Counted from the first letter of the stretch, positions 6,692-64,000 are shown. The stretch: 64,000 bases of DNA from an uncultured Acidimicrobiaceae bacterium (GCA_947259275.1 CAMYMH010000013.1:38896-102895); one strand, 5' to 3'. Program-made: numbers and translations. Notes: generated from the sequence alone by a model not told the origin.

Positions 6692-6700
6692 GCGCTCTAC

Positions 6701-7459: not shown

Positions 7460-7649
7460 GGGCGTCTTCCCTTCTCAGAAACGAAAACCAACCCTAGCGG
7501 CATCGCCACCCTCTGTGGTGTGGCGACGATGTCTGTCTCATGTTCATCGTCATCCGCCAAGCACTCGGTTCAGCAGCAGCCTTCATCGGTGTCGCCGCCG
7601 CAGCCGGTCTCATCATCTCCTAGTCAAGGCAACCAAGGGGCCTCGCCAC

Positions 7650-7688
7650 AACCGAGGAGCGTCCGGACCAACCGGACGCTCCTCGGTT
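7650..7688 (+). promoter_or_regulatory. Perfect 17-bp-stem hairpin (5-nt loop) in the hom leader / divergent intergenic region
   Basis: aaccgaggagcgtccgg-accaa-ccggacgctcctcggtt. Lies 100 nt upstream of the hom ATG (7788), and no gene ends nearby that it could terminate. Confidence 0.6.
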
Positions 7689-7787
7689 CACATCTGGAGG
7701 CAGCTCGGTGGTGCAACGGCAACTGATAGCTGGCAGCCATGCCAGATAGATGAAGCGCTCTCGGCTCGAGGCAGTATCGTCCCGGGT

Positions 7788-10486: not shown

Positions 10487-10686
10487 CGAGTCGCTCAACT
10501 CGGCACGGCCGGCGACCGAAGGAATAGATGACCGACAAGTGTGGTTGGCTCAATTACGTCGAGCCTCTATGATTAGTCTCGGACATTCGGTCCACAGCTC
10601 GACTCCAGCGCTACCGCCGTTGAGCACCCACGTGCATTCACGCTTAGCGCTTGCCCGAATTCTCTCGGCAGCAGCAAAGGAAACCT

Positions 10687-12123: not shown

Positions 12124-12139
12124 GAAAAGGACGAAGCCC

Positions 12140-12583
12140 GTGAAGACAGATATCCATCCCGAATACGTCGAGACCACAGTTCATTGCTCGTGCGGCAATG
12201 AGTTCACCACTCATTCGACCCGGGAGACCCTGACTGCCGAGCTGTGCAACGAGTGCCATCCCTTCTACACCGGGCGCCAGAAGCTGGTCGACTCGGGAGG
12301 TCGCGTCGAGCGTTTCCGCAAGCGCACCGAGAAGACGGACACCACTGCGGTTGAGGCCAAGCGCGCCAAGCGGGCCTCTTCGTCAAAGATCAAAGAGGCT
12401 GCCGCCAAACCGAGCTCGGCCGCCAAGGCCGGCGCCTCCAAGCCGATTCGCACCCGTCGTACGCCGAAGGAACTGGCGGCCGAAGCGGCCAAGGCGGAGC
12501 GGCTGGCCAAGGCTAAGGCGGAAGCCGACAAGGCGCCCGTTACCTCAACCGAAGACGCGGCGCCGGCCGACGCCGCGGAGTAA
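12140..12583 (+). CDS. rpmE: Ribosomal protein L31 (Zn-ribbon type) with ~70-aa Lys/Ala-rich C-terminal extension
   Basis: MKTDIHPEY...CSCG...[10 protein letters not shown]...RFRKR is a complete L31 core. The frame then stays open for ~70 further codons rich in K/A/E/S before the stop at 12583. Confidence 0.9.
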
Positions 12584-12587
12584 GCCC

Positions 12588-13622
12588 ATGAGCCGGCCGC
12601 CTGGCTCGACCGTAGGCGGTCAGGCCGTCATCGAAGGGGTAATGATTCGCAGCCCCCAGGCGTGGTCGGTGGCGGTGCGCCGTCCCGATGGGGAGATCGA
12701 GACCCGCCACCATGAGCTGCCGCGTCTGTCCTCACGCTCGCGGCTCGCCCGGGTTCCCTTCGTTCGGGGCGTGCTGGTACTCGGCGAATCACTCAACCTC
12801 GGCTTCCGGGCGCTCACCTGGTCGGCGCAAATCGCTTCGACCGAGGAAGACGCCAAGGAGACGGAACGGCTGACGGAGATCGTCGAGAACGCCAAGGGAC
12901 CCTTGGCCGGCTGGCGCAAGCAGCGGGCCGCCCGGCGACTCGAGCAGGGAAACGAGCTCAGCCGCAAGGACCTCGCCATCGCCATGAGCCTGGCTCTGGT
13001 GTTCTTCATCGGCGTGTTCATGCTGCTCCCGCTGGGCGGTGCCCGGGTGGTCGAGAATCTATTCGGCGGCTCGAACGCATTCGTGTTCAACCTGGCCGAA
13101 GGCATCATCCGGGTCGGCATCCTGGTCGGCTATATCTGGCTGATCGGCCGATCCGGTGAGATCCGCCGGGTCTTCCAATATCACGGGGCGGAGCACAAAT
13201 CGATCTACGCATACGAAGCCGGCGATCCGATGACGGTCGACAACGTCCAGCACTATCAGACGATGCATCCCCGGTGTGGGACTAGCTTCTTGCTGCTGGT
13301 GGTGCTGCTGTCGGTCCTGGTTTTCACGCTGGTGGGGATCTTCGAACCGAACCTCCTGTGGCTCATCACGAGCCGGATCGTGCTCATCCCGGCTATCGCC
13401 GGCCTGTCCTACGAGGTACTCAAGCTGTCCGATGCCAAGCCGTGGCTTCACTTCCTGTCCCGGCCCGGCATCGAGCTGCAACGCCTCACCACCCGTGAGC
13501 CGGAGGATGGTCAGGTGGAGGTCGCCATCGCCAGCCTGCTGGCTGCCATCTCGGGTGAAGCCCGCGACGAGGTGTTCGGGCGCGGGCCGGTGTGCGAGGC
13601 GGCCTGGGGCGCCGTGCAGTGA
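12588..13622 (+). CDS. DUF1385-family membrane protein (commonly linked to prfA/prmC)
   Basis: ATG at 12588, 4 nt after the rpmE stop. [13 protein letters not shown]-terminus, YHGAEHK motif, several hydrophobic segments. The 79-codon upstream extension in the ORF track is an R/P-rich off-frame read of the rpmE tail. Confidence 0.8.
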
Positions 13623-49968: not shown

Positions 49969-51183
49969 TCAGACCAGCGACGCGCCGGTGATGAACAGGT
50001 TTCGCATGGCGGGATCGCACCGGCTGAGCGTCCCGCGAAACGAGTACCGACTGCCGATCTCGAGCTGGTGCTCGGCTCCGTCGGGGAGCCGTACGATCGC
50101 ATCCACAATCCGGCCGGCGTAGAGGTCGGTCCCGAGCGCGGCGATGGAAAACACGGCCTTGACCCCCGGGCCATCGCCGAAGTCGCGATCGTGGTCGAAC
50201 CGGCGAAGCCGTTTCAGCTCGCCGGACCATGAAACCGCCTTGCCCTCGTACTCGGCTTCGAATATCTCCATAGTGTCGAAGCTGTAGTTCTCCTTGCGGA
50301 AGAGATGTTCGGCCACGGTGGCTGCGTCGCCGATGGTTTCGGTCGGGTCCGGGGCCGCCGACGGCTCCGGTGCGCGGTGCTTCGACCAGCGGTCGACCTC
50401 CGGGTCTGATGGTGCCCGGCGCTTGAGCTCCTCGAACACCTGGCGGCCTCCCCGGGTCTCGCCCCGGGCGTGGCGCATCTCACCGGCCTGCTGCTTGCGG
50501 GAGAAATCGACAAACGGATCCCCGCTAGCGGGTGCCCGCTCGAGGATCTCGAGCGCCTCGCCGACATCGCCGGCGAGGCGCCGGTCCGCCGCCTCGCTCG
50601 AATAGGGGTCGACGCCTCGCAGTTCCTGGGCAACCGACACGAGGCGCTGCATGGTAGAGACCAGCTCGTCGGCGTCGCCGACCAATCCCCGCTTCGAGTA
50701 CGAGATGGCGCGGTCGGTGATGGTCGTTCCCGAGTAGTGCTCGATGAGCCCGCTGATGGCGAGACGGCGTGATGGGGTCAGGTAGGACACGATGCGGTCG
50801 GGGTAGTCGCCTTTCAAAATGATGGCCTGGTCGAAGATGGGGTCCCCAACCTCGATGTCCTGAAAGCCGAGCAGGGCACCGAGGCGGGCAAACGCGTGCT
50901 GGCGTTTTGCCTTCAGGCCGAGGCCGAGCGATGGGTAACCAACCCGGTAGCGGGTGACGGTGTTGTCGTTTGACTGGTGGGTGTCGATCGTGACCGTGAG
51001 CCCGTCGACCGTGCCCGTCATCGACGGCCGGCCGAAAGCGCCCCAGACTCCGTTGGTGGGCTTGAGCACGATCCCGAGCCGGCGGGCGGCCGCTTCCCAG
51101 GATTGATTTGACCGTTTGCGTTGGTTGACGGCGGCTGCAACTACGGCACCGAGGATGCCGATGAAGACGAGAGGAAACACCAC
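49969..51183 (-). CDS. Hypothetical protein with N-terminal membrane anchor
   Basis: 404 aa. MVFPLVFIGILGAVVAAAV TM, no motif recognised. The codon pattern is consistent with neighbouring genes. Confidence 0.55.
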   Translation of the reverse strand: MVFPLVFIGILGAVVAAAVNQRKRSNQSWEAAARRLGIVLKPTNGVWGAFGRPSMTGTVDGLTVTIDTHQSNDNTVTRYRVGYPSLGLGLKAKRQHAFARLGALLGFQDIEVGDPIFDQAIILKGDYPDRIVSYLTPSRRLAISGLIEHYSGTTITDRAISYSKRGLVGDADELVSTMQRLVSVAQELRGVDPYSSEAADRRLAGDVGEALEILERAPASGDPFVDFSRKQQAGEMRHARGETRGGRQVFEELKRRAPSDPEVDRWSKHRAPEPSAAPDPTETIGDAATVAEHLFRKENYSFDTMEIFEAEYEGKAVSWSGELKRLRRFDHDRDFGDGPGVKAVFSIAALGTDLYAGRIVDAIVRLPDGAEHQLEIGSRYSFRGTLSRCDPAMRNLFITGASLV

Positions 51184-51300: not shown

Positions 51301-52305
51301 TCAGTCAACCGTCCAGGTGGCGTTGGTCCGCAACACCGAGGCCAGGTCTCCCGGCCCCTTGGCCTCGGTGGCGTCGGCGATTTGCCTCTCCATGTCGTCG
51401 TCGTAGGCCGGTCGCTCCACGTTGCGGAAGATGCCGAGCGGCGTGGGGCCGTGGGGGCCGTGGGCGAGCCGGCTGAGCGCAAACGCGGTTGCGGGGTCGT
51501 CGACGGTGGCATCGTGGGTGTGCACGACGTCCTCTCCGTATTGCTCGACGTCAACGATGAAGGCCCGACCTTCCTCGAGGGCGACGCCCTTCTTCCCGCC
51601 GTCGAAGAGCACTTTCTCGCCCTGGACGAGGCGAATCTGGTTTTCGTCGCGCGATTCCTTGGCAGTCAGCTCGATGAAAGCCTTGTCGTTGAAGACGTTG
51701 CAATTCTGGTAGATCTCGATGAAGGCCGAGCCCTGATGCTGGTGAGCTGCCGTGAGCATTTCGATGGTGTGGGTTCGATCCATGTCGAGGGTGCGGGCCA
51801 CGAAGGTTGCCTCGGCGCCGAGTGCCAGGCTCACCGGATTAAACGGGTGGTCGAGGGAGCCCATCGGGCTGGATTTGGTCCGTTTGCCTGCCTCACTCGT
51901 CGGGGAGTACTGGCCCTTGGTGAGGCCATAGATTTGGTTGTTGAACAGAAGAATCTTGATGTTGACGTTGCGCCTGAGCGCATGGATGAGGTGGTTGCCG
52001 CCGATGGAGAGGGCGTCACCGTCCCCGCTGACCACCCACACCGACAGCTCCGGGCGGGCGGCGGCGATTCCGGTGGCGATGGCAGGGGCTCGTCCATGGA
52101 CGCTGTGCATTCCGAAGGTTTCCATGTAATACGGAAAGCGGGCGGCGCACCCGATGCCGGACACGAATACCACATTCTCCTTCGGTATTCCGGCATCGGC
52201 CATGAATAGCTGTACCGAGGCCAGGATCGTGTAATCACCGCAGCCGGGGCACCAGCGGACTTCCTGATCGGACTGGAAGTCCTGACGGGTATAGGCGATG
52301 GTCAC
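51301..52305 (-). CDS. korB: 2-oxoacid:ferredoxin oxidoreductase beta subunit (TPP-binding), set 1
   Basis: WCPGCGDY, SGIGCA, GDGDALSIGGNH, NNQIYGLTKGQ. 4-nt overlap with the alpha gene. Confidence 0.9.
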   Translation of the reverse strand: MTIAYTRQDFQSDQEVRWCPGCGDYTILASVQLFMADAGIPKENVVFVSGIGCAARFPYYMETFGMHSVHGRAPAIATGIAAARPELSVWVVSGDGDALSIGGNHLIHALRRNVNIKILLFNNQIYGLTKGQYSPTSEAGKRTKSSPMGSLDHPFNPVSLALGAEATFVARTLDMDRTHTIEMLTAAHQHQGSAFIEIYQNCNVFNDKAFIELTAKESRDENQIRLVQGEKVLFDGGKKGVALEEGRAFIVDVEQYGEDVVHTHDATVDDPATAFALSRLAHGPHGPTPLGIFRNVERPAYDDDMERQIADATEAKGPGDLASVLRTNATWTVD

Positions 52306-54173
52306 GGCATTTCCAGGGTCTCGATGATCTTGTCCTTGATCTCGGCCGCCTTGAAAGGCAGGCCCTGCACTTTGGAGAACGAGATGGCCGGCACCAGAAA
52401 CTCAGCCCGCAGCAGCCGAGAGAGCTGACCGCGATTGAGCTCGGGTACCAGCACCTTGGGGTAGCGGGCCAACACTTCGCCGAGGTTGTTGGCAAAGGGG
52501 TGGAGGTGTCGGAGATGAATGTGGGCCACCTTGTAGCCCTCCAGGCGGGTGTTGTTGACTCCGGCCCGGGTGGCCGAGTAGGTCGAGCCCCATCCGACGA
52601 CCAGCAGCTCGGCGTCGGCGTCATCCTCGACCTCGATATCGGGAATGTCGTTGGCCACCGCCGCCACCTTTTGCTCGCGCAGCAGGGTCATTACTTCGTG
52701 GTTGATCGGGTCGTAGCTGACGTCGCCGGTCAACTGGTCCTTCTCCAGGCCGCCCACCCGGTGTTCCAGTCCCGGGGTACCCGGGACCGCCCACGGACGC
52801 GCCAGCGTCTCGGGATCGCGCAGATAGGGCATGAACTCTTTGCCCTCGATATGGGTGGCAAACGAGGTCGGGAATGACGGCAGGTTCGCCGAGTCGGGGA
52901 GCAGCCACGGCTCGGAGCTGGTGCCGATGTAGCCGTCCGACAGCAGAATGACCGGGGTCATGTATTTGATGGCGATCCGGCAGGCCTCGATGGCCGCGTC
53001 GAAGGCGTCACCCGGGCTGGAGGCAGCAATAACCGGCAGCGGGGCATCACCATGGCGGCCGTGAATCGACATCATCAGGTCCGACTGCTCGGTCTTGGTG
53101 GGGAGACCGGTCGAGGGGCCGCCGCGCTGGACGTTGAGGATGATGAGCGGAAGCTCGGCCATCAACGCCAGGCTGATGGTTTCGCTCTTGAGGGCGACGC
53201 CGGGGCCGCTGGTCCCGGTGACCCCGAGGTGGCCGACGAATGCGGCTCCCAGCGCCAGACCCACCGCCGCGATCTCGTCCTCGGCCTGGAAAGTCTTGAT
53301 GCCGAAGTTCTTGTGCCTGGCCAGCTCGTGCAGGACGTCACTCGCCGGGGTGATCGGGTAGGAAGCGTAGAAGAGGGGTATTCCGGCCGCCTGGGCGCCG
53401 GCGATCAGGCCCCAGGCAATCGTCTGGTTGCCGACCACATTCGTGTATTCACCGGGGGGAAGATCGGCGGCCGGGACTTCGAAGGTGGAATGAGCGAATG
53501 CTTCGGTGGTAATGCCGTAGTTGTATCCCGCCTTGAAGGCGGCCGTGTTGGCGGCCAGTACCTCAGGCTTGGCAGCGAATTTCTCGGCCACCCAGTCGAG
53601 GGTGGTCTCCTGGGGCCGATCGAACATCCAGGCAAGGGCGCCGAGCGCGAAGAAGTTTTTTGAACGCAGGACCTCGCGACCCTGCACCCCGCTGTCCTTG
53701 ACGGCTTCTTTGGTCAGCTCGTCCATGGGGGCGGCCAGCACGTTGTACCCGTCCAGGGTGCCGTCTTCGCGGGGATCTGTCTCGTAGCCGGCTTTGGCCA
53801 GGTTGCGCTCCTCGAAGCTGTCGGTGTTGATCACTATGACCCCGCCGGGCATGACGTCGTCGAGGTTCTTCTTCAGGGCGGCCGGGTTCATCGCCACCAG
53901 GACGTCGGGGGCGTCGCCCGGAGTGAGGATGTCGCCGCCCGCGATGTGGATCTGGAAGGCCGAAACACCGGCCAGCGTCCCGGCCGGGGCGCGGATCTCC
54001 GCGGGGAAGTTGGGGAGGGTGGCTAGGTCGTTCCCGAAGGCGGCGGATGCGTCGGTGAACCGGGCCCCGGCCAGCTGCATGCCGTCTCCCGAGTCCCCGG
54101 CGAAACGGATGACGACTCGCTGGCGGCGTTCGCGGTCGGAAATGGGTGGTGCGGAGTCTTGAGTGATGGCCAC
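52302..54173 (-). CDS. korA: 2-oxoacid:ferredoxin oxidoreductase alpha subunit, set 1
   Basis: Likely GTG start at 54173 (VAITQDS...). The track extension to 54524 overlaps the amidase gene. FAGDSGDGMQLAG, YPITPAS, EDEIAA, GGPSTGLPTK. Confidence 0.9.
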   Translation of the reverse strand: MAITQDSAPPISDRERRQRVVIRFAGDSGDGMQLAGARFTDASAAFGNDLATLPNFPAEIRAPAGTLAGVSAFQIHIAGGDILTPGDAPDVLVAMNPAALKKNLDDVMPGGVIVINTDSFEERNLAKAGYETDPREDGTLDGYNVLAAPMDELTKEAVKDSGVQGREVLRSKNFFALGALAWMFDRPQETTLDWVAEKFAAKPEVLAANTAAFKAGYNYGITTEAFAHSTFEVPAADLPPGEYTNVVGNQTIAWGLIAGAQAAGIPLFYASYPITPASDVLHELARHKNFGIKTFQAEDEIAAVGLALGAAFVGHLGVTGTSGPGVALKSETISLALMAELPLIILNVQRGGPSTGLPTKTEQSDLMMSIHGRHGDAPLPVIAASSPGDAFDAAIEACRIAIKYMTPVILLSDGYIGTSSEPWLLPDSANLPSFPTSFATHIEGKEFMPYLRDPETLARPWAVPGTPGLEHRVGGLEKDQLTGDVSYDPINHEVMTLLREQKVAAVANDIPDIEVEDDADAELLVVGWGSTYSATRAGVNNTRLEGYKVAHIHLRHLHPFANNLGEVLARYPKVLVPELNRGQLSRLLRAEFLVPAISFSKVQGLPFKAAEIKDKIIETLEMP

Positions 54174-54232
54174 GATCGAACTGAAGATTAGAACACCGGG
54201 GAGAGTAGCGGGTCGCTTTCGGCTGCGGGGCG

Positions 54233-55621
54233 CTAGCCGTTGGGGGGTGGTCGGAATCGCACCACGCCCGAACGCTCGAGTGCCATCCCGACGGCGAGCA
54301 ACCGGTCCTCCGACCAGTCCGGCCCAATCACCTGGATCGAGGGTGGCGGGGAGCCCCCTTCGTGCAAGGGGACCACCAGCGCCGGGTGTCCGGCGTGATT
54401 TACGAGGGCCGAGAACATGGAGAAGGCCTGCCGGTACCCCATCTCCTCCCCGTCGACCATCAGCTGGGGGGCGCCAATGGGTTTGCGATTGGCTGCCACC
54501 GCAGGCGTTAACAGGACGTCGCACTCCCGGAACAGATCGAAGGTGTGCTCGCGGAGTTGTTCACGCCACCGTTTGGCTTCCACGCCGGCCGCCACGGTCA
54601 CCGCCATGGTGGGGCCCAGGCGATCCGCCACCTCCGGCCCGTACTCGTCGGCCCGGGACGGAAACCATTTGCCGTGTACGACCGCGATCTCGCTCGAGGC
54701 CGCCTGGTTGATATGGCCGGGTGGCTGGACGAAGTCGTCCTCCAGGTGGCGGATCTCGGCGCCTGAGCCGGCCAGCCTGCCGAGGGCGGCGTCGAAGGCG
54801 GCCCGCAGCGGCGGGTCGACCCGGTGATCGACCCACGGGTGGGGCACTCCCACGACGAGTTCGGGGAGCTCGGCAGCCGGGTCGGGTACCCGAACCGGCT
54901 CGACCTGAGAATACGGATCGGCGGGGTCGGGCCCGGCGATCACCGCGTAGATGAGGGCGGCGTCTTCCACGGTGCGGGTGAGGGGCCCGACGGTGTCGAG
55001 GCTGGGAGCGAGCGGGAACACGCCGGTGAGCGGCACCCGCCCGTGGGTCACCTTGAGCCCGACGGTGCCGCAAACCGCCGCCGGTACCCGCACCGACCCA
55101 CCGGTGTCGGTCCCGATGGCGACCGCACTCAAACCGGCCGCCACCGCCACCGCCGACCCGCCCGACGACCCGCCCGGCGACGTGCCCGGATCCCACGGGT
55201 TGCGGACCGCGCCGAACCAGTGGTTCTCAGACGAGAAGCCGTAGGCGAACTCGTGGAGTCCGGTCCGCCCGATCACGATTGCCCCGGCCGCTTCCAGGCG
55301 CTCAACGACGGTGGCTGACTGCTTGCCCACCTGGCGGTAGAACGAGGAGCCGGCCGTGGTCGGCAGGCCCTTCTGGTCGATGAGGTCCTTGAGGGCGACG
55401 GTGACGCCGGCCAGGGGCCCGACCTCGTCACCGGAGAACATCTGCCGGTCGAGGAGCTCGGCACGCAGCAGAGCCTGTCGGCGATCGATGAAGGTGTAGG
55501 CGTTGAGCCGGTCCTGCGAGGCTTCGCTGCGGTCGAGGTAGAGGGTCACCAGCTCCCGGATGGTCACGGCCCGGATACGGATGAGCTCGAGTTGCTCGGT
55601 GGCAGAGAGAAATGGGTCCAA
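54233..55621 (-). CDS. Amidase-signature family amidase (GatA-like)
   Basis: [14 protein letters not shown] amidase signature and [18 protein letters not shown] at 55621 is the first start-like codon after the upstream stop at 55654. Confidence 0.85.
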
Positions 55622-55653
55622 GGTGTGGATCCTATCGTCGCCGCCATCCCCGC

Positions 55654-57852
55654 CTAGTTGAAAGCGGCAGCTCGCTCGACCAGTTCTTCCAGGCCCGGCT
55701 CGCTCGGATTCCACGGCTTACCCGGGTGGATGATTGCCACCTGGCAGGCCTCGGCTGCCTCGACCATTTGGCGGTAGCTGCCGGCGCCGAGGTCGGCGAT
55801 GATTGCCTGCTTGTTCTCGTCGTAGGCGAACATCCTCGAGTTGAGAGTGGTGCACTCGTCGCAGGTGGTGCAACGGGCGGTCTCGATATAGGGCTCATCG
55901 GCCGGAGGCGCCTCCTCCGGCAACTCAACGACCGCCGCTTCCTCAACCGCCGGCGGGGTCTCGAGCTCCTCGACCGGCCGCTCCTCCACGATCACCGCGG
56001 CGGCGGCCGAGCCGGCGGTAACCTCTTTCAGCTCCCGCGCCGTTTCCTCCTCCCAGCGGGCACGCGCTTGTTCCAGCAGCCGCCGGGCGTGAGAGTTGTG
56101 AATGCCTCCCAGCTCTTGCAGGCTGTTCCACTGCCGCCGGCAACGGCGGGCAGCCTCGATCAGCTCACGGTCGACCACCAGTCGCTGCAGCAGGTTGTCG
56201 GCGGTGGCCATCAGGATGTAGGGCACCTTTCCCGGCGGAGCCTCTCCATTGAGGAACCGCCAGGCCGGCTCCATCTGGTCGTTCCAGGAGCTGCGTGGCA
56301 CCGGTACGAAATGATCCGCATAGCGGCTATCGCAAGCCGCGAAGTCCACGAACGTGAACCTGACTTCCTCGGTGATTCTCTGCAGGTTGTCGTCTTCGTA
56401 AGTGAGCGCTTCGACCGGCCAGTCGTCGTCGGCCGCCGGATTGCCGTCCACTCGAAAGCGGGCGGCCCAATCGTCCCCGGCTCCGGGGTCGTAGGTGAAG
56501 GCGGGAAAGGCCCGGGATCGCATGGCCGAGGCGGCGGTGAGGTACCGCGGCAAATCCCGGACATGCTTCTTGGAGCCGCCAAACACGCTAAACAAGGCCG
56601 GGCCCTGGTGGGAGAGACCGGCGACCACCGTCTCCTCCATCCGGGGCAGATTGGAACTGGCGGATTGCATGGTGAAAGCTTCGCCCAGCCCGATCGCCAG
56701 GTTGCCGAGCCGTCCGCCTCCCACCCCCGGAGACCAGCGCACGTCGCCGATCGGTGACTCGCCGAGGATGTCGTCGCTCTCGACCAGCACTTTGATGGGA
56801 AGGCTGGAGGAGAGTATGTCGACCAGCTGGGCCTGTTCCGTCCCCACCACGTCCTCTGCCTGCATGGTGACCAGATAGGAGGGAAACGCCGCCAGATCTT
56901 GCGCAGTCGGCGAGGTCTCGTCGAAGGCCGCGAAGAACTCATCGTGCTTGGGCTCCCGGTACCGGTTCTCGATCTCGAGCCTGGCGATGGTCATGGCCTT
57001 GATCAGCTCCAGCATCTCGGGAACTCGCTGGCGGAAAGCGGTTGCCGCCGCGGTGGCGCGGTCGAACCGGAAGGAGTAGGGCGTCGCCTTTCCTCCCGGA
57101 ATGAAACGCTGGTTCTCCAGGATGGAGAGTATGGATTCCAGCCGCCGGCGCCGATCCGGCCCAACCGCACCGGAGGGTGTCCCGGTCACCATCCGCGACC
57201 AGGCCTCGAAGTCGAATTCCCGACGGTGGCTCACCCCAACCGACCCGGCCAGTCTTTCGGGGGCCAGGCCCGCTTGGGAACGGGAGTAGTCGGCCTGCAG
57301 GATATTGGACAGCCGCAGGGTGAGCTCGGCGATCTCCTGGCGCACCACCAGTCTCTGCCGTTTCCCAACCGCCGTCCAGATGTGCTCCAGGAAGTCGGAG
57401 GCGAGCCGGTCGTCACAATCAACTGCCCGGCCGTCTACCAGCCGGGCCGCCTCAGCTTTGGCCAGGCTGGCTTGGACGAGAGCCGCCTCGTCGGCGTTCG
57501 TTTCTGCCAGCAGGCCCTTGGCAGCCGCCTCCCACATTTGGGATAGCAATCCGACTTCACCCCCGGATACGGCGCGGCGAATCCGCAGCTCGAGGCCAAG
57601 CAGGTGGCGCCGGATGCGCTCCCCGGAGGGCCCGGGTGGGGCGACCTCCCGGAGGATGTCGTCGAACAGCTCCGACAGGCTGAGAGTGAGGGAGTCCCCA
57701 TTCTCTGTCAGCAGCAGCGGGAAGTCGTAGCGAAGCGTCGAGAGGTCTTGGAGGGATGCCAGCACCGCCGGTCGGAGTCCGGGTGGCGCAGGCTCGGTGT
57801 CGGTCGGCGGCTCGCCGGTGAGATGGAATCGAACCAGCTCAGGTAGCAGCAT
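55654..57852 (-). CDS. Uncharacterised 732-aa protein with C-terminal single-cluster ferredoxin domain and a central region resembling a degenerate PFOR TPP-domain tail
   Basis: ATG at 57852 with SD aggagg. It overlaps the OFOR-beta stop by 14 nt. C-terminus CTTCDEC...CQVAIIHPG. The central IKVLVESDDILGES...GPALFSVFGGS...SRAFPAFTYDP parallels the PFOR order [18 protein letters not shown]...GPSLVIAY...SGYWPLFRYDP (recalled from memory). Confidence 0.7.
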   Translation of the reverse strand: MLLPELVRFHLTGEPPTDTEPAPPGLRPAVLASLQDLSTLRYDFPLLLTENGDSLTLSLSELFDDILREVAPPGPSGERIRRHLLGLELRIRRAVSGGEVGLLSQMWEAAAKGLLAETNADEAALVQASLAKAEAARLVDGRAVDCDDRLASDFLEHIWTAVGKRQRLVVRQEIAELTLRLSNILQADYSRSQAGLAPERLAGSVGVSHRREFDFEAWSRMVTGTPSGAVGPDRRRRLESILSILENQRFIPGGKATPYSFRFDRATAAATAFRQRVPEMLELIKAMTIARLEIENRYREPKHDEFFAAFDETSPTAQDLAAFPSYLVTMQAEDVVGTEQAQLVDILSSSLPIKVLVESDDILGESPIGDVRWSPGVGGGRLGNLAIGLGEAFTMQSASSNLPRMEETVVAGLSHQGPALFSVFGGSKKHVRDLPRYLTAASAMRSRAFPAFTYDPGAGDDWAARFRVDGNPAADDDWPVEALTYEDDNLQRITEEVRFTFVDFAACDSRYADHFVPVPRSSWNDQMEPAWRFLNGEAPPGKVPYILMATADNLLQRLVVDRELIEAARRCRRQWNSLQELGGIHNSHARRLLEQARARWEEETARELKEVTAGSAAAAVIVEERPVEELETPPAVEEAAVVELPEEAPPADEPYIETARCTTCDECTTLNSRMFAYDENKQAIIADLGAGSYRQMVEAAEACQVAIIHPGKPWNPSEPGLEELVERAAAFN

Positions 57853-58828
57853 GCTCTTTTTCCTCCTGCTCCGGCCAGATGGTGAACCGGTCGAGCTCTG
57901 CTTCGAAGCCCTTGGCGATCGCATCGGGCGTGTAGAGCCGGTCGGGTTTGCGTAGCTCTTCGTATCGAGGGATCTCGGGGTTGCGATAGAGGATGCCGAC
58001 CGGGATCGCGTCGGCGCCTGCCGCGATGTCTTTGGCTCGCAGCAGATCGAGTGGGTCGTGTTCCTCCTGATTGCGATAGGTGCGGCTCAGGGAGGGGGCG
58101 GGCTGGATGCCGTCTTGATGAGAAAGCAACAACACTCGCGCCGGGTCCTGCACCCAGGGATCGAAGAAGGCGGGCAAGTACTCCGGGCACCGCTGCAGTA
58201 CCCGAATAAACGAGAAACCCTTGTGATGGAAGGCGAGCGAGACGATCTGATGGAGCAGTTCGGGGATCCAGTCAACTGCCTGCGCGACGAACGAGGCGTT
58301 GGTCACCCCCAGTGTGACGCTGAGCGGATCGAGGGGGTTGAGATCGGCGCCGTAGGGGGTGGTGTTGCTCTTCAGGCCGAGCGGGGAGGTAGGAGATGCC
58401 TGATGCTTGGTGAGGCCGTAGGTCCGGTTGTCGTGCATCACCACCGTCATGTCCATGTTGTATCGAAGGGCGTGGATCCAGTGGGCGGTGCCGATGCTGC
58501 AGCAGTCACCGTCCCCGGTGTTGACAAACACGTGCAGGTCGGGACGGCGGATCTTGATTCCCTCGGCGACCGGAAGCGCCCGGCCGTGCAGGCCGTGGAA
58601 GCCGTAGGTGTTCATGTAGTGGGGGAAGCGGCCGGAGCAGCCGATGCCGGACACGAACACCACCTTTTCTTGTGGGAGCTGCTCATCTCGACAGAGGCGC
58701 TGGAGCGAGGTGAGGATGGCGTTGTCGCCGCAGCCGGTGCACCAGCGGGGGACCCCACCTTCGTAATCCTCGATGGTGGAGCGCTCATCGTCGGACAACA
58801 GCACGCAGTCGGTTGCGGTAAGTGCCAT
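57839..58828 (-). CDS. 2-oxoacid:ferredoxin oxidoreductase beta subunit (TPP-binding), set 2
   Basis: WCTGCGDN, SGIGCSGRFP, GDGDCCSIGTAH, HDNRTYGLTKHQ. Confidence 0.9.
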   Translation of the reverse strand: MALTATDCVLLSDDERSTIEDYEGGVPRWCTGCGDNAILTSLQRLCRDEQLPQEKVVFVSGIGCSGRFPHYMNTYGFHGLHGRALPVAEGIKIRRPDLHVFVNTGDGDCCSIGTAHWIHALRYNMDMTVVMHDNRTYGLTKHQASPTSPLGLKSNTTPYGADLNPLDPLSVTLGVTNASFVAQAVDWIPELLHQIVSLAFHHKGFSFIRVLQRCPEYLPAFFDPWVQDPARVLLLSHQDGIQPAPSLSRTYRNQEEHDPLDLLRAKDIAAGADAIPVGILYRNPEIPRYEELRKPDRLYTPDAIAKGFEAELDRFTIWPEQEEKEHAAT

Positions 58829-58844
58829 AGGTGGTGACCTCCTC

Positions 58845-60722
58845 CTAACTCAGCTTCTCTCGGAGAACTTCTTCGATCCGGCCCGGTTTGAGGGGTTGGC
58901 CTCGGACCTCGCCCCAGCAGTCGATGTCGATGAGGGTGCGAGCGCGCAGCATCCAGGCCAGGTTGGTGTAGCGGCGGTTCTCGTTGTCGATCAGGCCATC
59001 TCCCACGTAATCGCAGTAATTGTTCTCTACCGCCATCACGTGCTCGAAGCGTTGCATCGCCTCGGCGATCCCCGGGGCCATCGGTTGCAGGAACTTGAGA
59101 TGCATTGAGCCCGCCCGGTGCCCGTCGGCTCGTACCCGCTCAACTGCCTCCTCGATGGCGCCCTTGGTGCTGCCCCAGCCAACCACCAGCAGCTCGCCCT
59201 CCTGGTCGCCTACGACTGCTGCGGGCATCAAGGTCTTCTGAAAGGCCGCCAGTTTCATGCTGCGATTCCGCAGGCCCTCCTGGTTGATCGACGGGTCGTA
59301 GGCCACGGTGCTGCTGCGGTCATGCGCCAGTCCGGTGAGGCAGTGCATGCCCTTGGGTTGCCCGGGGATGAATCGGCGAGCCAGGCCGGAGTCTCGGTCC
59401 CATTCGTACGGCTCCGCCCCGTCCGGAATCGGGCTCTGGTCGATCGGCGGGGCGAGCCAATCCTCGCTGAACCGGGGCCGGATGAAAGGCTGCTGGGCGG
59501 TGGCCAGGCTGGCGTCGGTCAGCACCACCACCACCATGTTGAAGGTCTCGGCAATCCGGCGGGCGGTGATAATCGAGTAGAAGCAATCTTCGATGTCGCC
59601 GACGCCCATCACCACCTTGGGGGCATCTCCGTGGCTGCCGAACACCGAGGTGAGCAGGTCGCCTTGCTCGGCCTTGGTCGGCTGTCCGGTCGAGGGCCCT
59701 CCTCGCTGCACGTTGACTATCACCAGTGGAATCTCGGCCATCACCGCCAGGCCGATTCCCTCTTGCTTCAGCGAGTAACCGGGGCCCGATGTGATCGTCA
59801 CGGCGCACTTCCCGGCATACGAGGCGCCGATGGCGAAGGCACAGGCGGCGATTTCGTCCTCGGCCTGGTGAACCACTCCGCCCACCTTTTCAAAGATCTC
59901 GCTCAGGTAGTGGGAGGCGGAGGTGGCCGGGGTGATGGGATACATGGCGCAGACTTCCATCCCCGAAGCCATCACCCCCAGGCCGATGGCGGTGTTGCCG
60001 TTGACGACCACCCGGGGCTCTCGGGGCGGGGTGGCCGGTATTCGAAAGCGGAGGTCGAGGCTTTCTTCCGCCCATTGCCAGCCGGCTTGCAGCAGCTGCT
60101 GGTTGGGGAGGATCACCCGGTCGCCCTTCTTGGCGAAAGTGAACGCAACCTGCTCCCTGGCCAGATCTAGGTCGAGGCTGTAGATGCGGCACAGCAGCCC
60201 GAGCACGAACATGTTCTTGCCGCGCCGGGGGTCGGCGACGTACTCGAGACACTTCTCTTCCATCGGGATCTCGTATACCTGGTAGCCGTCGGCCACCAGC
60301 TCGTCGCGGACGGCGACGTAAGAGGCTGCGATTTCGGGATCCGGATTGCTCTCCCACATGTTCTCCATCAGCACTATGCAGCCGGGTTTCAGCTCCTGGG
60401 CCCGCAGCCGGCCGAGCAGAACCTGCTCATTGAAAGCCACTACCAGGTCGGCGGCGTCGCCCCCATTGCCGACCGGGCCGGTTGCCAGCCGGGTGCGGTT
60501 CCCGCTGGCGCCCTCGATGCTGCGCGCCGGCGGCTGAATCTCGGCCGGGATGATCTCCACGGTCCAGATGCCGTTTCCCATCCGGGCTGCGATTCCTGCC
60601 AATGACTGGCCGCACTTCTGGGCGCCCTCTCCGGAGTCGCTGACGATGTCGATGATGTGCTCTTCCAGCACTGTGGCTGTGTCATCGATACCCGGCGGGG
60701 GGGAGTCCAGTCTGGTCGCCAT
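58845..60722 (-). CDS. 2-oxoacid:ferredoxin oxidoreductase alpha subunit, set 2
   Basis: VSDSGEGAQKCGQ, YPITPATS, EDEIAA, GGPSTGQPTK. Confidence 0.9.
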   Translation of the reverse strand: MATRLDSPPPGIDDTATVLEEHIIDIVSDSGEGAQKCGQSLAGIAARMGNGIWTVEIIPAEIQPPARSIEGASGNRTRLATGPVGNGGDAADLVVAFNEQVLLGRLRAQELKPGCIVLMENMWESNPDPEIAASYVAVRDELVADGYQVYEIPMEEKCLEYVADPRRGKNMFVLGLLCRIYSLDLDLAREQVAFTFAKKGDRVILPNQQLLQAGWQWAEESLDLRFRIPATPPREPRVVVNGNTAIGLGVMASGMEVCAMYPITPATSASHYLSEIFEKVGGVVHQAEDEIAACAFAIGASYAGKCAVTITSGPGYSLKQEGIGLAVMAEIPLVIVNVQRGGPSTGQPTKAEQGDLLTSVFGSHGDAPKVVMGVGDIEDCFYSIITARRIAETFNMVVVVLTDASLATAQQPFIRPRFSEDWLAPPIDQSPIPDGAEPYEWDRDSGLARRFIPGQPKGMHCLTGLAHDRSSTVAYDPSINQEGLRNRSMKLAAFQKTLMPAAVVGDQEGELLVVGWGSTKGAIEEAVERVRADGHRAGSMHLKFLQPMAPGIAEAMQRFEHVMAVENNYCDYVGDGLIDNENRRYTNLAWMLRARTLIDIDCWGEVRGQPLKPGRIEEVLREKLS

Positions 60723-60725
60723 GGG

Positions 60726-62285
60726 TCATCCTTCCTGACTACCGGAGCCGCTCAGGGCCGGCTCGGGTACGGTGTGATCGGGTGGCAGCCGCAGCCGCAC
60801 GTGGTTCCGCTCCCGGGGGTCGAAGCCAAACGGACCCTCCTTGGCGCCGTCGGGTTGGTACACCACCTCGGTATCGCGGATCTTGAGGTAATCCTTGATG
60901 GCCCCGGCCGCCGTGCGGCCCGCGCCCATCGCCAGGATGACGGTGGCGGCCCCGGTGACGATGTCTCCGCCTGCGTACACCCCGGCCATCGATGTGCTCA
61001 GGTCATCGTCGGTTGCGATGTAGCCGCGTTCGTCGAGTTCCAGTTCGGAGGTTTGGCCGATCACCTTGTTGGCGGTGGTACCGATCGCATAGACGACGGT
61101 GTCGGCCTCGAATTCGTATTCGCTGCCCGGGATGGGAACCGGGCGTCGCCTCCCCGAATCGTCCGGTTCGCCGAGCTCCATGCGGATGCAGCGCATCGCC
61201 CGCACCGCTCCTTCACCGTCGTCGAGAAGTTCCACCGGAGCGGTCAGCCAGTGGAACTCGACCCCTTCTTCCTCGGCATGGGTGATCTCCTCCTCTCGGG
61301 CCGGGCTTTCCTGCCGGGTGCGGCGGTAGACGCAGTACACCTTCTCGGCACCGGCGCGCAGGGATACCCGCATCGCATCCATGGCGGTATTGCCGGAACC
61401 GATGACGGCGACATGTGAGCCGATGGTGATCGGGGTGTCGTATTTGGGAAACTGCAGCGCCCCCATCAGGTTGCAGCGGGTCAGCAGCTCGTTGGCGGAG
61501 AGCACGCCATGCAGTGCTTCTCCGGGTATGCCCATGAAGCGGGGGGTGCCGGCACCGGTGCCGATGAAGACGGCGTCGTAGCCCATTTCGGTTCGCAGCT
61601 GTTTGATGGTGAACATCCGGCCGACCACGGTGTTGCACTGGATCTCGACCCCCAAACGGGTGAGGTTCTCCATCTCGGCGTCGATGACTTCGTTTGGCAG
61701 GCGGAATTCGGGGATGCCGTAGCGCAGGACCCCGCCGGGGGCGTGCAACGCTTCGAAGATGGTGACTTCACATCCGGCCTTGGCCAGGTCGGCGGCACAG
61801 GCGATGCCGGCGGGGCCCGATCCCACCACTCCGATCCGGTAGGGGACTGGCTCGATGTGGGGGACGTTGTGCCAGCCTTCCTCCAGCCCCATGTCGCCGA
61901 TCCAGCGTTCCAGCCGGCCGATGGCGACCGGCTCCAGGACGTCGCCCACCGGGCAAACCAGTTCGCACTGGTCCTCCTGCGGGCATACTCGGCCACAGAT
62001 CGCCGGAAGCAGGTTGGCGTCGGTGAGGATGTCATAGGCTCCGCGATAGTCCTGCTCGGAGATCCGCTCGATGAAGCCGGGGATGTCGATCGCCACCGGG
62101 CAGGCAGGCACACAGGCGGCCTCTTTGCACAGCAGGCACCGCTCCGCCTCCCGCAAGGCGTCCTCGGGCCGGTAACCAAGCGCCACCTCGTCGAAGTTGC
62201 CGATTCGATCCGACGCCGGCTGCTCGGGAATCGGCGTGCGTTCCTGGGGAATCGTTCGAATCGTCTTCTTGGTTTCGGTTGCCAA
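60726..62285 (-). CDS. NfnB/GltD-like NAD(P)H-dependent FAD/[4Fe-4S] oxidoreductase (glutamate synthase small-subunit family)
   Basis: TTG at 62285, 14 nt after the upstream stop. RIGNFDEVALGY, CLLCKEAACVPACPV, CGRVCPQEDQCE, VVGSGPAGIACA, GGVLRYGIPEFRLP. Confidence 0.88.
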   Translation of the reverse strand: MATETKKTIRTIPQERTPIPEQPASDRIGNFDEVALGYRPEDALREAERCLLCKEAACVPACPVAIDIPGFIERISEQDYRGAYDILTDANLLPAICGRVCPQEDQCELVCPVGDVLEPVAIGRLERWIGDMGLEEGWHNVPHIEPVPYRIGVVGSGPAGIACAADLAKAGCEVTIFEALHAPGGVLRYGIPEFRLPNEVIDAEMENLTRLGVEIQCNTVVGRMFTIKQLRTEMGYDAVFIGTGAGTPRFMGIPGEALHGVLSANELLTRCNLMGALQFPKYDTPITIGSHVAVIGSGNTAMDAMRVSLRAGAEKVYCVYRRTRQESPAREEEITHAEEEGVEFHWLTAPVELLDDGEGAVRAMRCIRMELGEPDDSGRRRPVPIPGSEYEFEADTVVYAIGTTANKVIGQTSELELDERGYIATDDDLSTSMAGVYAGGDIVTGAATVILAMGAGRTAAGAIKDYLKIRDTEVVYQPDGAKEGPFGFDPRERNHVRLRLPPDHTVPEPALSGSGSQEG

Positions 62286-62299
62286 CTTCCCTGCTCCTA

Positions 62300-63382
62300 T
62301 CAGGGCGCGGCCGCGCCCGTCAAACCCTCCGCCCACGTCTCCAGGGCCTGCTTCTCCTGTTCGATGAACCTGCGCAATCTGCCCATGAGATGGTCGAAGT
62401 CGACCTGGTGACCGTCGAATTCGGGCCCGTCCACGCAGGCGAATTTCATTTCTCCGCCCACGATGACCCGGCATCCACCGCACATCCCCGTCCCGTCGAC
62501 CATGATCGGGTTGAGGCTGACCGTGGTCTTGATCCCGTGGGGACGAGTGGCTTCGGCGCAGGCTCGCATCATGATGGGCGGACCGATGGCCACCAGCTCG
62601 GCGATGTCCTCGTGCTCCTCGATGGCAGCCTCGATTCCCTTGGTCACCAGACCGTGGATCCCCGCCGAACCGTCATCGGTGCAGATGATGAGCTGATCGC
62701 AATAGCGGTTGAACTTGTCCTCCCAGAAGATCAGCTCCCGATTGCGGAACCCGACGACGCCGATCACGTACGCCCCCGCCTCCTGGGCGGCCCGCACTTG
62801 CGGATAGATCGACGCCACTCCCAACCCGCCGCCGACGAACACGGTCTTGCCGGCGTTCTCGAGCTGGCTGGGAATGCCCATCGGCCCGACCACCGAGTGG
62901 AGGGTGCTGCCCGCCACGCATCGCTGCTGCATCTCACGGGTGGTCTTGCCGACCGCTTGCACCACCAGGGTGATGGTCCCCGCCTCTCGATCGAAGTCGG
63001 CAATGGTCAGTGGAATGCGCTCCCCGTGTTCATGGGAGATCACCAGCACGAACTGACCCGGCTGGGCGGCCTCGGCCAGCATCGGATGACTCAACTCGAG
63101 CAGGTAGGTGACGTCCGAGAAGTCCTCCCGAGCGGTGATTTGATAACCATCAGCCTGGACCGGTTTGGGATCGGTGGGGCCATCCAGCTCCCGCCGAGCC
63201 CGGGCGATCCGCTCACGGAACTCGGCCACCACCTGGGAGCGGGCCTGGCGGGCGGTTTCCAGGTCTTGAGTCCGGAGCGAGCGGCGCAGGTCGTATCCCA
63301 GCGCGGGCCGCAGGCTGGGGGGAACCGAGATCTTCACCCACCAGGTCTTGCCCCGTTTGAACAGATACCTGGTGTCGCTCAT
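62300..63382 (-). CDS. NfnA/SudB/PyrK-like FAD/[2Fe-2S] ferredoxin-NADP reductase-type subunit with ~85-aa N-terminal extension
   Basis: ATG at 63382 with SD ggaaggg. Core: PGQFVLVISHEHGERIPLTIADFD, GPMG, FVGGGLGVASIYP, DGTGMCGGCRV. N-terminal YLFKRGKTWWVKISVPPSLRPALGYDLRRSLRTQDLETARQ is not part of the normal family. Confidence 0.85.
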   Translation of the reverse strand: MSDTRYLFKRGKTWWVKISVPPSLRPALGYDLRRSLRTQDLETARQARSQVVAEFRERIARARRELDGPTDPKPVQADGYQITAREDFSDVTYLLELSHPMLAEAAQPGQFVLVISHEHGERIPLTIADFDREAGTITLVVQAVGKTTREMQQRCVAGSTLHSVVGPMGIPSQLENAGKTVFVGGGLGVASIYPQVRAAQEAGAYVIGVVGFRNRELIFWEDKFNRYCDQLIICTDDGSAGIHGLVTKGIEAAIEEHEDIAELVAIGPPIMMRACAEATRPHGIKTTVSLNPIMVDGTGMCGGCRVIVGGEMKFACVDGPEFDGHQVDFDHLMGRLRRFIEQEKQALETWAEGLTGAAAP

Positions 63383-63444
63383 CCGCTCACCCTTCCGAGT
63401 AATCGGCCCGCCGGCCCCCGGTGGTGGGGGACAGTCGACCCGGA

Positions 63445-63505
63445 TGTACCTTCTCGGGGCCAACCTTGTACCTGAGGGGTCCTGCCGGATAGGGTCTTTG
63501 TACCT
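63445..63505. promoter_or_regulatory. Three direct repeats of TGTACCT (spacing 22 and 32 nt) upstream of the nfnA-like operon
   Basis: Copies at 63445-63451, 63467-63473 and 63499-63505, 63-123 nt upstream of the start at 63382. Confidence 0.5.
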
Positions 63506-63515
63506 TTTGTGAATT

Positions 63516-63531
63516 TGTGAAAGTTTGCACA
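63516..63531. promoter_or_regulatory. CRP-like site TGTGA-N6-GCACA (9/10 match) upstream of the nfnA-like operon
   Basis: tgtgaaagtttgcaca lies in a locally AT-rich stretch, 134-149 nt upstream of the start at 63382. Confidence 0.4.
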
Positions 63532-63600
63532 AAGTCGGACGATATTCCGGGACTTAGACATCGGTGTGCCGGGAACCAATTCCGGCGGTAGTCTCGCAAC

Positions 63601-64000
63601 GTGAGCTTTGAGATTCCGTCCGACCCATACAACGCGGTCCTGGGCCTGCGCGTGGTTAGGAAGTATCTGGCCGAACCGGTTTCGGCCGAGGATGCGGCGG
63701 CGATTCTCGAGGCCGGGCGATGGACCGGAAGCGCCAAGAATCGCCAGGACTGGATGTTTCTCGTTGTGGATGATCCCGACCAGCAGGGCCGGCTCGCCGA
63801 TTGTGGCCAATTCTCCCAACCGCTACGTGATGCCCGACTGGCCGTGGTACCCGTTCGCCTGCCGGACGGCTATGAGTTCGACATCGGCCGGGTCTCGCAG
63901 AACATGATGCTGGCGGCGTCCACGCGCGGGGTCGGCTCTTGTCCCGTTACCCTCCACGATGAGGCCTGTGCGGCCGAGGTCCTCAGCCTGCCGGCCGGGC
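63601..64000 (+). CDS. Nitroreductase-family protein (3' end outside window)
   Basis: The GTG at 63601 opens a frame that runs to the window end. LRVVRKYLAEPVSAEDAAAILEAGRWTGSAKNRQDWMFLVV matches the RxxRxF...ILEAA...N.Q.W.F.VV nitroreductase pattern. Confidence 0.7.
   Translation, partial: MSFEIPSDPYNAVLGLRVVRKYLAEPVSAEDAAAILEAGRWTGSAKNRQDWMFLVVDDPDQQGRLADCGQFSQPLRDARLAVVPVRLPDGYEFDIGRVSQNMMLAASTRGVGSCPVTLHDEACAAEVLSLPAG

Follow-up and report, generated by a model that had tools for sequence, protein, structure and literature searches.

A conserved five-gene cassette of an Nfn-like pair, a two-subunit 2-oxoacid:ferredoxin oxidoreductase and a PFOR-derived ferredoxin-domain protein, inserted beside an amidase-korAB operon

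The 64,000-nucleotide (nt) stretch of DNA analysed here (hereafter the window; GC content ~64%), from an uncultured Acidimicrobiaceae bacterium (GCA_947259275.1 CAMYMH010000013.1:38896-102895), carries a tight array of eight co-directional genes on the minus strand at positions 51301-63382. In gene order the array encodes an NfnA-like and an NfnB-like flavoprotein, the two subunits of a 2-oxoacid:ferredoxin oxidoreductase (OFOR; alpha2 and beta2), a 732-amino-acid (aa) ferredoxin-domain protein that we call X740, an amidase, and a second pair of OFOR subunits, KorA and KorB. We find that the first five genes form a conserved cassette, that the last three belong to an ordinary resident operon, and that X740 appears, from sequence and model comparisons, to be a pseudoenzyme derived from pyruvate:ferredoxin oxidoreductase (PFOR). 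Open reading frames (ORFs) together with Pfam and NCBIfam scans bear out the eight minus-strand genes, the spacing of -14 to +59 nt and the domain content given in a preliminary description of the locus; after refinement of the start codons of three genes (NfnB-like, amidase and KorA) the intergenic gaps are, in gene order, +14, +3, +16, -14, +32, +59 and -4 nt. Such spacing makes co-transcription of all eight genes plausible, and a consensus scan places no terminator-like site in any gap of the array, the scan returning 7 sites in all against 7.2 in shuffled sequence; both promoter and terminator scans are uninformative in this high-GC genome.

The gene neighbourhood of X740 separates the array into two parts. 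Synteny was counted in the 80 loci that resemble the query most closely, with genes located by tblastn and cassettes counted as complete where at least 5.8 kb of upstream DNA is available; in 45 of 45 such loci the genes for the NfnA-like protein, the NfnB-like protein, OFOR alpha, OFOR beta and X740 occur in the same order and on the same strand. On shorter contigs whatever part of the cassette fits is present, and gene calls on individual contigs agree. Clustering of the flanking ORFs of ~80 loci revealed no sixth conserved gene, the best family occurring in 8 loci. The first five genes are linked far more constantly than chance would allow, and the conserved unit is five genes, placed in unrelated genomic contexts.

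The cassette is horizontally spread, and the carriers seen are nearly all metagenome-assembled genomes (MAGs). X740 is encoded in at least 593 species genomes in a scan of one genome per GTDB species, and an exhaustive profile search yields a family of 2797 clusters at 50% identity, hundreds of the homologues being full-length proteins of ~740 aa annotated merely as "hypothetical" or "ferredoxin". The closest relatives of the window protein lie in Acidimicrobiia MAGs (67% identity), which by itself points to that class as the probable source of the window; other carriers belong to the Alpha-, Beta- and Gammaproteobacteria, Myxococcota, Nitrospiraceae, Thermoleophilia and Gaiellaceae. The 45 complete loci are spread over Actinomycetota, these three proteobacterial classes, Myxococcota and Nitrospirota. 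Across phyla the four partner proteins are 65-88% identical and X740 45-67%.

In four relatives of the window (L090, L092, L093 and L095) the site occupied by the cassette is empty: DNA matching window positions 63589-63998 lies directly upstream of DNA matching window positions up to 55642, with the two flanking blocks ~84 nt apart in L090, and synteny with these relatives goes on downstream of korB. The intervening DNA has therefore been inserted into the divergent promoter region that precedes a resident amidase-korAB operon. The inserted DNA comprises a 205-nt non-coding region and the five genes and ends at or just after the stop codon of X740; no target-site duplication is obvious on inspection of its borders. 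The resident operon is conserved in its own right. Amidases at least 47% identical to that of the window occur in 11 metagenome loci, where a KorA-type OFOR alpha gene lies directly downstream in 11 of 11, a KorB gene follows where the contig is long enough and no cassette stands upstream, and KorB is 74-89% identical in L090-L097. The eight genes are thus two separate units, the cassette and an ordinary resident amidase-korAB operon, and not one evolutionary unit.

These comparisons bear directly on the earlier proposal that all eight genes are one designed module, in which two OFORs and a substrate supplied by the amidase feed a common ferredoxin domain and the Nfn pair. The proposal draws on the shared direction of the genes, gaps of no more than 59 nt and the lack of terminator-like sites in them, and, with the insertion having left ~32 nt between the end of the X740 gene and the beginning of the amidase gene, co-transcription in this genome is possible. 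Set against it, an orthologous amidase or KorAB adjoins the cassette in 0 of 45 complete loci, the sole amidase match near a cassette lying in the partial locus L055, ~1.3 kb downstream of X740, and being distant (31% identity). Moreover, the trio keeps its own company without a cassette in all eleven amidase loci, relatives show the empty site, and the closest Acidimicrobiia cassettes (L004, L006, L007 and L009) are followed by other genes. A conserved eight-gene design is largely refuted, and we consider the single designed module very improbable. What survives of a self-contained module is the five-gene set: the expected association of the 732-aa family holds for the Nfn pair and one OFOR, as it should if the ferredoxin domain connects the two, and fails for KorAB and the amidase, so that the picture of one module fed by two different 2-oxoacids and an amidase has an insertion event behind it rather than a conserved design. 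Amidase-korAB may receive read-through from the cassette in this genome as an accident of the insertion. For annotation, the case warns that tight co-directional arrays should not be taken for functional units without comparative evidence.

Table 1 Features of the cassette, the resident operon and their surroundings (window coordinates)
Feature	Position (nt)	Strand	Length or residues	Remarks
NfnA-like (NfnS/SudB-type) FAD/NAD-binding [2Fe-2S] subunit	62300-63382	-	360 aa	ATG start
NfnB-like (NfnL/SudA/GltA-type) subunit	60726-62285	-	519 aa	TTG start at 62285, GGAG-type ribosome-binding site
OFOR alpha2	58845-60722	-	625 aa	domains III+I+II; YPITP motif present
OFOR beta2	57839-58828	-	329 aa	TPP (thiamine pyrophosphate) motif GDGD...N and four Cys for one [4Fe-4S]
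X740, ferredoxin-domain protein	55654-57852	-	732 aa	
X740, helical N-terminal region			residues 1-256	
X740, degenerate PP (pyrophosphate) domain and C-terminal extension	56023-57084	-	residues 257 to ~610	
X740, linker	55873-56007	-	residues 616-660	disordered, Ala/Pro/Glu-rich
X740, single-[4Fe-4S] ferredoxin domain	55657-55890	-	residues ~655-732	
Amidase-signature enzyme (AtzE/GatA-like)	54233-55621	-	462 aa	TTG start at 55621 backed by homologue N-termini
KorA, second OFOR alpha	52302-54173	-	623 aa	GTG start at 54173; same length as the L090 ORF
KorB, second OFOR beta	51301-52305	-	334 aa	
Non-coding region upstream of the NfnA-like gene	63383-63588	-		part of the inserted cassette; three AGGTACA direct repeats
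AGGTACA direct repeats (three)	63445, 63467, 63499	gene orientation (TGTACCT on +)		-69, -91 and -123 from the ATG
Divergent neighbour gene, partial	63601-64000	+		runs off the window; adjoins the amidase in relatives; far edge of the insertion site
Insertion (upstream region and five genes)	55643-63588	-	~7.95 kb	from comparison with related genomes

The first two cassette genes encode clear members of the Nfn families. The NfnA-like subunit scores 375.5 bits against NCBIfam PRK06222 (cutoff 220) and matches the small subunit of Pyrococcus furiosus NfnI (5jca_S) with an E value of 1e-92; it keeps the Asp/Cys3 motif of the [2Fe-2S] cluster (D-G-T-G-M-C-G-x-C...C), and its stretch MVDGTGMCGGCRV...FACVDGPEF aligns with the P. 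furiosus protein. The NfnB-like subunit scores 582 bits against TIGR01316 (cutoff 471.75), matches Thermotoga maritima NfnB (4ylf_B; E 4e-163) and retains both [4Fe-4S] motifs, CLLCKEAACVPACP and CGRVCPQEDQCELVCP, including the Glu ligand of CPQE, along with the folds that bind flavin adenine dinucleotide (FAD) and NADPH. The pair thus resembles NfnAB/NfnI of T. maritima (4YLF) and P. furiosus (5JCA) in family membership, gene adjacency, cofactor motifs and FAD/NAD(P) folds. Canonical Nfn, by contrast, works with free ferredoxin, and its genes are not accompanied by those for an OFOR or a tethered ferredoxin; the small subunit of the cassette has an additional domain, DUF6538, and any electron bifurcation by the cassette pair is putative.

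Both OFORs of the array are of the two-subunit type. Alpha2 matches Pfam POR, POR_N and PFOR_II and scores 493.5 bits against TIGR03710 (cutoff 482.75), as compared with 638.9 bits for KorA. The two alpha subunits are 35% identical, and the closest solved relative of both is the 2-oxoglutarate:ferredoxin oxidoreductase (OGOR) of Magnetococcus marinus (6n2n_A; E 9e-81 for alpha2 and 3e-83 for KorA). Pfam assigns TPP_enzyme_C and PFO_beta_C to beta2 and TPP_enzyme_C to KorB; residues C30, C33, C64, C214 and G105-D106-G107 of beta2 are invariant in the beta alignment, and KorB likewise keeps the cluster cysteines and GDG. Neither pair has a delta subunit or a domain-V ferredoxin, and motif and domain tests uphold the earlier assignment of both to the two-subunit class. 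The cassette OFOR shares with M. marinus OGOR (6N2N) and Sulfolobus tokodaii OFOR (5B46) an alpha subunit of domains III+I+II with YPITP, a beta subunit with TPP site and one [4Fe-4S] cluster, and the lack of delta or domain V. Unlike these enzymes, which use soluble ferredoxin, it is always encoded with X740 and the Nfn pair. Two-subunit OFORs and NfnAB are usually discussed as dependent on a free ferredoxin pool.

X740, the fifth member of the cassette, was modelled with AlphaFold2 from 26 homologues (predicted local distance difference test score, pLDDT, 82.6), confidence being low only in the loop 366-379 and in the disordered segment 616-660, the length-variable linker, where it falls below 50. 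The ~75 C-terminal residues match ferredoxin I of Desulfovibrio africanus (1dax; E 2.5e-5) and share the CxxCxxC...C ligand set of that type: C661, C664, C667 and C703 are invariant in the 26-sequence alignment, and Pfam Fer4_13 scores 22.3 bits, just under its cutoff of 24.5 and above it in relatives. Outside the ferredoxin domain one cysteine, C146, is invariant, and another, C571, almost invariant. The first 650 residues fall under no Pfam or NCBIfam family, and a profile search of the PDB recovers the ferredoxin domain only.

The link of X740 to PFOR came from a fold search and a distant plasmid-borne homologue rather than from sequence-only searches. Foldseek against the PDB matches the model to PFORs (7plm and 6ciq; E 3e-4, probability 1.0), further matches being to oxalate oxidoreductase and two-subunit OFORs, in each case to the beta chain. 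By tblastn, two distant homologues of X740 were located on plasmids, pPP1 of Persicobacter psychrovividus and plasmid 1 of Gemmatirosa kalamazoonensis. Residues 257-732 of X740 align with the C-terminal 490 residues of the 1629-aa PFOR-type protein of Persicobacter (BLASTP E 1e-61, 29% identity), which contains POR_N, PFOR_II, POR, dicluster ferredoxin and TPP_enzyme_C domains and an intact GDG...N motif; this part of X740 therefore corresponds to the PP domain, C-terminal extension and terminal ferredoxin of the long PFORs. In contrast to them, X740 lacks domains I-III and V, with no Pfam match to POR_N, POR or the Fer4 dicluster, and it has none of the cysteines that ligate the three PFOR clusters. 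The TPP motif is lost as well: where Persicobacter has GGDG...DTQVYSNTGGQ, X740 reads QAED...ESDDILGES, in columns that are unconserved in its family. Some family members of 1236-1460 aa (P0190, P0203, P0222 and P0228) have a degenerate PFOR N-terminal half with a faint PFOR_II signal, which suggests stepwise decay from a full PFOR; another set of length variants, of 820-870 aa, bears an N-terminal extension of 60-80 residues (P0210, P0214 and P0216, about 860 aa). Taken together, sequence and model indicate that X740 is a PFOR-derived pseudoenzyme carrying a tethered single-cluster ferredoxin, derived from PFOR and not itself a PFOR, and, judging by its motifs, it cannot be a TPP enzyme. The preliminary description had recognized the ferredoxin domain of this otherwise "unknown" protein and missed both its degenerate PFOR origin and the integrase-type domain of the first gene.

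The genomic settings of the two long PFORs are informative in their own right. The Gemmatirosa plasmid has OFOR genes of the alpha2/beta2 type (58% and 54% identity) just upstream of the gene for a long PFOR with an X740-like C-terminus, and rnf genes follow; in Persicobacter, such a long PFOR gene is directly followed by rnfC and rnfD. The ferredoxin module thus lies beside another ferredoxin:NAD+ enzyme in both plasmids, which supports the reading of the cassette as a single assembly. The two regions (5512-12845 of the Persicobacter locus, L087, with a protein of 1629 aa; 522-12811 of the Gemmatirosa locus, L088, with one of ~1670 aa) encode PFORs with an extra C-terminal single-cluster ferredoxin domain, the next gene in Gemmatirosa being of the rnfD family. 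To our knowledge, an architecture of long PFOR, C-terminal ferredoxin domain and rnf genes has not been described.

The NfnA-like subunit begins with a 75-residue extension that contains the Pfam domain DUF6538 (residues 6-64, window positions 63191-63367; 42.8 bits, cutoff 27). An Azospirillum plasmid encodes a tyrosine integrase with this domain at its N-terminus (60.6 bits) and a Phage_integrase match besides. The DUF6538-NfnA fusion is found in 119 of the 120 top homologue clusters, with lengths of ~358-380 aa, and the extension is present in 7 of 49 cassette loci, the proteins of the rest beginning at the NfnA core. A truncated integrase pseudogene upstream of nfnA, considered as an explanation of the extension, was ruled out by the continuous frame and the conservation of the fusion. 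The AlphaFold2 model of the domain (pLDDT 82.9) is a three-stranded sheet with a long helix, and many of its Arg and Lys residues are invariant. Foldseek against BFVD gives weak matches to integrases and AP2/HNH proteins (E 0.3-1.4); sequence searches of PHROGs and the PDB returned nothing for DUF6538, and a word-index homologue search with 80 residues returned one protein.

Three direct repeats of AGGTACA lie in the non-coding DNA upstream of the NfnA-like gene, in gene orientation, and a repeat finder recovers them independently. The heptamer occurs four times in the whole 64-kb window, the fourth being a single copy in minus orientation at 20460, and the chance of at least three AGGTAC in 400 nt is ~7e-5. 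Upstream regions of the extension-bearing loci are nearly unalignable except for the repeated AAGGTACA. Within 400 nt upstream, forward AGGTAC is present in 3-5 copies in all extension loci of the first set and in 0 of 38 loci without the extension; three extension loci chosen later (L170, L171 and L172) have 2-3 copies each, so that the repeats accompany the domain in 10 of 10 loci as against 0 of 38 without it, always in gene orientation and ~60-270 nt from the start codon. This association suggests autoregulation: the DUF6538 domain of the NfnA-like subunit probably binds the AGGTACA repeats and thereby controls its own operon. Just upstream of the repeats (63506-63536) are two tandem copies of TTTGTGAA and a 12-nt inverted repeat (GAATTTGTGAAA / TTGCACAAAGTC, 63511-63536); the stretch TTCACAA...AAAGGTACAAAGACCCT is conserved in L006, and these elements may act as a further operator or as part of a promoter. 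No Rfam family matches the upstream region. One Acidimicrobiia MAG contains two diverged full copies of the cassette (L007, JBFGAX010000048.1, and L009, JBFGAX010000025.1), with X740 proteins 67% and 66% identical to that of the window, and both copies have the DUF6538 extension and the upstream repeats.

Arm-type N-terminal domains of tyrosine integrases, with which the match to Pfam DUF6538 is shared, offer the nearest comparison; the cassette domain, modelled as a three-stranded sheet with a long helix, goes with short direct repeats beside the gene. In the NfnA-like subunit, by contrast, the domain has a flavoprotein and not a recombinase as its fusion partner, and its DNA binding is putative. 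Domain and repeats might be no more than relics of a mobile element, an integrase arm-binding domain with its arm sites, that moved the cassette and has no regulatory role. That DUF6538 otherwise serves as an integrase N-terminal domain, and that the cassette is an insertion here and stands in unrelated contexts elsewhere, would fit such an origin. Relics would hardly be expected, however, to be fused in frame with many invariant residues in 119 of 120 clusters, or to leave repeats as the sole conserved feature of otherwise unalignable upstream DNA in a fixed distance range and orientation; no integrase catalytic domain accompanies the cassette in the gene-called loci, and 38 of 48 cassettes lack both features. 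We therefore regard purely mobile-element relics as improbable.

An OFOR needs an external electron acceptor, NfnAB needs a ferredoxin partner, and X740 is always encoded with both, so that the simplest reading of the cassette is a single assembly. We lean, by a modest degree of confidence, towards a combined reading in which the five genes encode one multi-subunit 2-oxoacid:NAD(P)+ oxidoreductase with a tethered ferredoxin, the DUF6538 domain autoregulates the cassette in the clade that includes the window, and amidase-korAB is an unrelated resident operon. The comparisons establish the gene content, the homologies, the lost TPP motif, the kept ferredoxin cysteines, the strict synteny, the insertion and the association of domain with repeats; complex formation, the electron path, the substrate and direction of the reaction, and DNA binding are inferred. 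The OGOR-like alpha2/beta2 OFOR would oxidize a 2-oxoacid, probably 2-oxoglutarate or pyruvate, and pass electrons from the single [4Fe-4S] cluster of beta2 to the single-cluster ferredoxin domain of X740. The ~45-residue flexible linker, rich in Ala, Pro and Glu, would let this domain swing as a tethered carrier, while the rest of X740, a dead PFOR PP domain with its C-terminal extension, would serve as a docking scaffold. From the ferredoxin domain, electrons would reach the [4Fe-4S] clusters of the NfnAB-type pair and be exchanged with NADP(H) and NAD(H). In the forward direction, oxidation of the 2-oxoacid would be coupled to reduction of NADP+, with confurcation of NADH if the pair acts like canonical Nfn; run backwards, the system would use flavin-based bifurcation to draw from NADPH the low-potential electrons that reductive carboxylation requires.

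Several points weigh against this reading. The five proteins are linked here by genes alone, and conserved synteny is compatible with co-regulated separate enzymes too. The count of complete cassettes comes from the loci most similar to the query, with the distant members of the family (820-870 aa and 1236-1460 aa) outside it. Likeness to OGOR is moderate and is one of overall similarity to the M. marinus enzyme, which does not fix specificity for 2-oxoglutarate. The comparison of X740 with OFOR beta subunits by hhalign (E 0.42) is not significant by itself, though the same segments fall in register. As to autoregulation, the DUF6538 model has no Foldseek match in the PDB at E below 1, including the solved arm-type DNA-binding domains, and the Fisher p of 1.5e-10 for the association of domain and repeats overstates the independence of loci that share ancestry. 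An action of the repeats at the level of the mRNA leader would be just as compatible with the association.

The cassette might encode a co-regulated set that forms no complex, with X740 either a specialised free-standing ferredoxin or a protein that shields the OFOR from oxygen or helps it mature, and with the Nfn pair balancing the soluble ferredoxin and NAD(P)H pools. Domain VII of D. africanus PFOR is a precedent for such a protective or maturation role. Synteny cannot separate a complex from co-expression, and the faster divergence of X740 relative to its partners would suit a looser, accessory function. Yet a conserved scaffold of 650 residues is large for a diffusible ferredoxin, tethered carriers are typically built as a flexible linker with a ferredoxin domain at its end, and in Persicobacter and Gemmatirosa the homologous module is joined covalently to the rest of the PFOR. 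A co-regulated set without a complex therefore seems unlikely, if by no means negligible.

The single-assembly reading has functional precedents in KorABC (2-oxoglutarate:NADP+) and PadEFGHI (phenylglyoxylate:NAD+) of Azoarcus evansii, in which OFORs are reportedly joined to a GltD/NfnB-like flavoprotein and NAD(P)+ is said to be reduced directly, with no free ferredoxin. KorABC reportedly consists of three subunits, KorA, KorB and a ~62-kDa GltD-like KorC, and neither system is said to have an NfnA-type subunit or an X740-like protein. By this description of KorABC the cassette stands apart, having five genes that include an NfnA-type subunit and X740 and an NfnB-like protein of 519 aa. A possible reading is nevertheless that the Nfn-like pair does not bifurcate at all and is a plain SudAB-like ferredoxin:NADP+ reductase; the cassette would then be an enlarged counterpart of A. 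evansii KorABC. Consistent with this, six or seven betaproteobacterial loci have, near the cassette, a cluster of KorA, KorB and a 610-aa GltD-like protein, which we take to resemble KorABC. On the other hand, neither Nfn subunit is ever missing, all their cofactor motifs are kept, and a plain reductase would leave the NfnA-type subunit superfluous; overall we judge non-bifurcation rather unlikely. The KorABC-like cluster is separate from the cassette, with 28-33% identity, and the cassette is therefore a different system. In detail, the second cluster is found a few kb further downstream, on the strand opposite that of the cassette, in L028 (15070-19801), L030, L031, L076 and, in part, L029 and L084, and encodes a KorA-like, a KorB-like and a ~610-aa GltD/NfnB-like protein, 28-33% being their identity to the window proteins.

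Each component of the cassette is a member or a derivative of a known family, and their constant combination points to an OFOR hard-wired to NAD(P)-linked flavoproteins, that is, to a fixed link between the oxidation or synthesis of 2-oxoacids and the NAD(P)H pools. The carriers include lineages not seen as ferredoxin-centred anaerobes, such as Burkholderiales, Rhodospirillales, Acidimicrobiia and marine Gammaproteobacteria. Carried further, and quite tentatively, the cassette may represent a new class of electron-bifurcating/confurcating 2-oxoacid:NAD(P)+ oxidoreductase supercomplex in mostly non-fermentative, often aerobic lineages, in which the X740 scaffold bears the sole ferredoxin needed and ferredoxin-level electrons pass from or to NADPH without a soluble pool, and in one clade of which the flavoprotein regulates its own operon through a domesticated integrase arm-binding domain; as a whole, this extension is doubtful. 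If the complex exists, it would be a directly testable new example of flavin-based bifurcation/confurcation coupled to C-C bond chemistry, would give a function to a large family now without a Pfam or NCBIfam model, and would be a clear case of a catalytic domain turned scaffold. The association of DUF6538 with AGGTACA would give a domain of unknown function its first testable DNA target and, if true, make the NfnA-like protein an unusual redox-enzyme subunit that regulates itself. In open-access text, to which the search was confined and which leaves absence unproven, we found no description of the five-gene combination, of an X740-type scaffold or of the DUF6538 fusion with its repeats; an open-access Ferrigenium preprint mentions only an OGOR next to carbonic anhydrase.

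Two minor observations concern the resident locus. The amidase scores 340.5 bits against Pfam Amidase and 339.9 bits against the AtzE model NF006631, below the cutoff of 461 of the latter. As a candidate idea, its coupling to a two-subunit OFOR may mean that it hydrolyses a 2-oxoacid amide, for example 2-oxoglutaramate, and thereby supplies Kor. A gene 117 nt downstream of korB (49969-51183, minus strand) encodes a 404-aa protein with only a sub-threshold match to APH; it is syntenic in L090 and L092 and so belongs to the resident locus rather than to the cassette.

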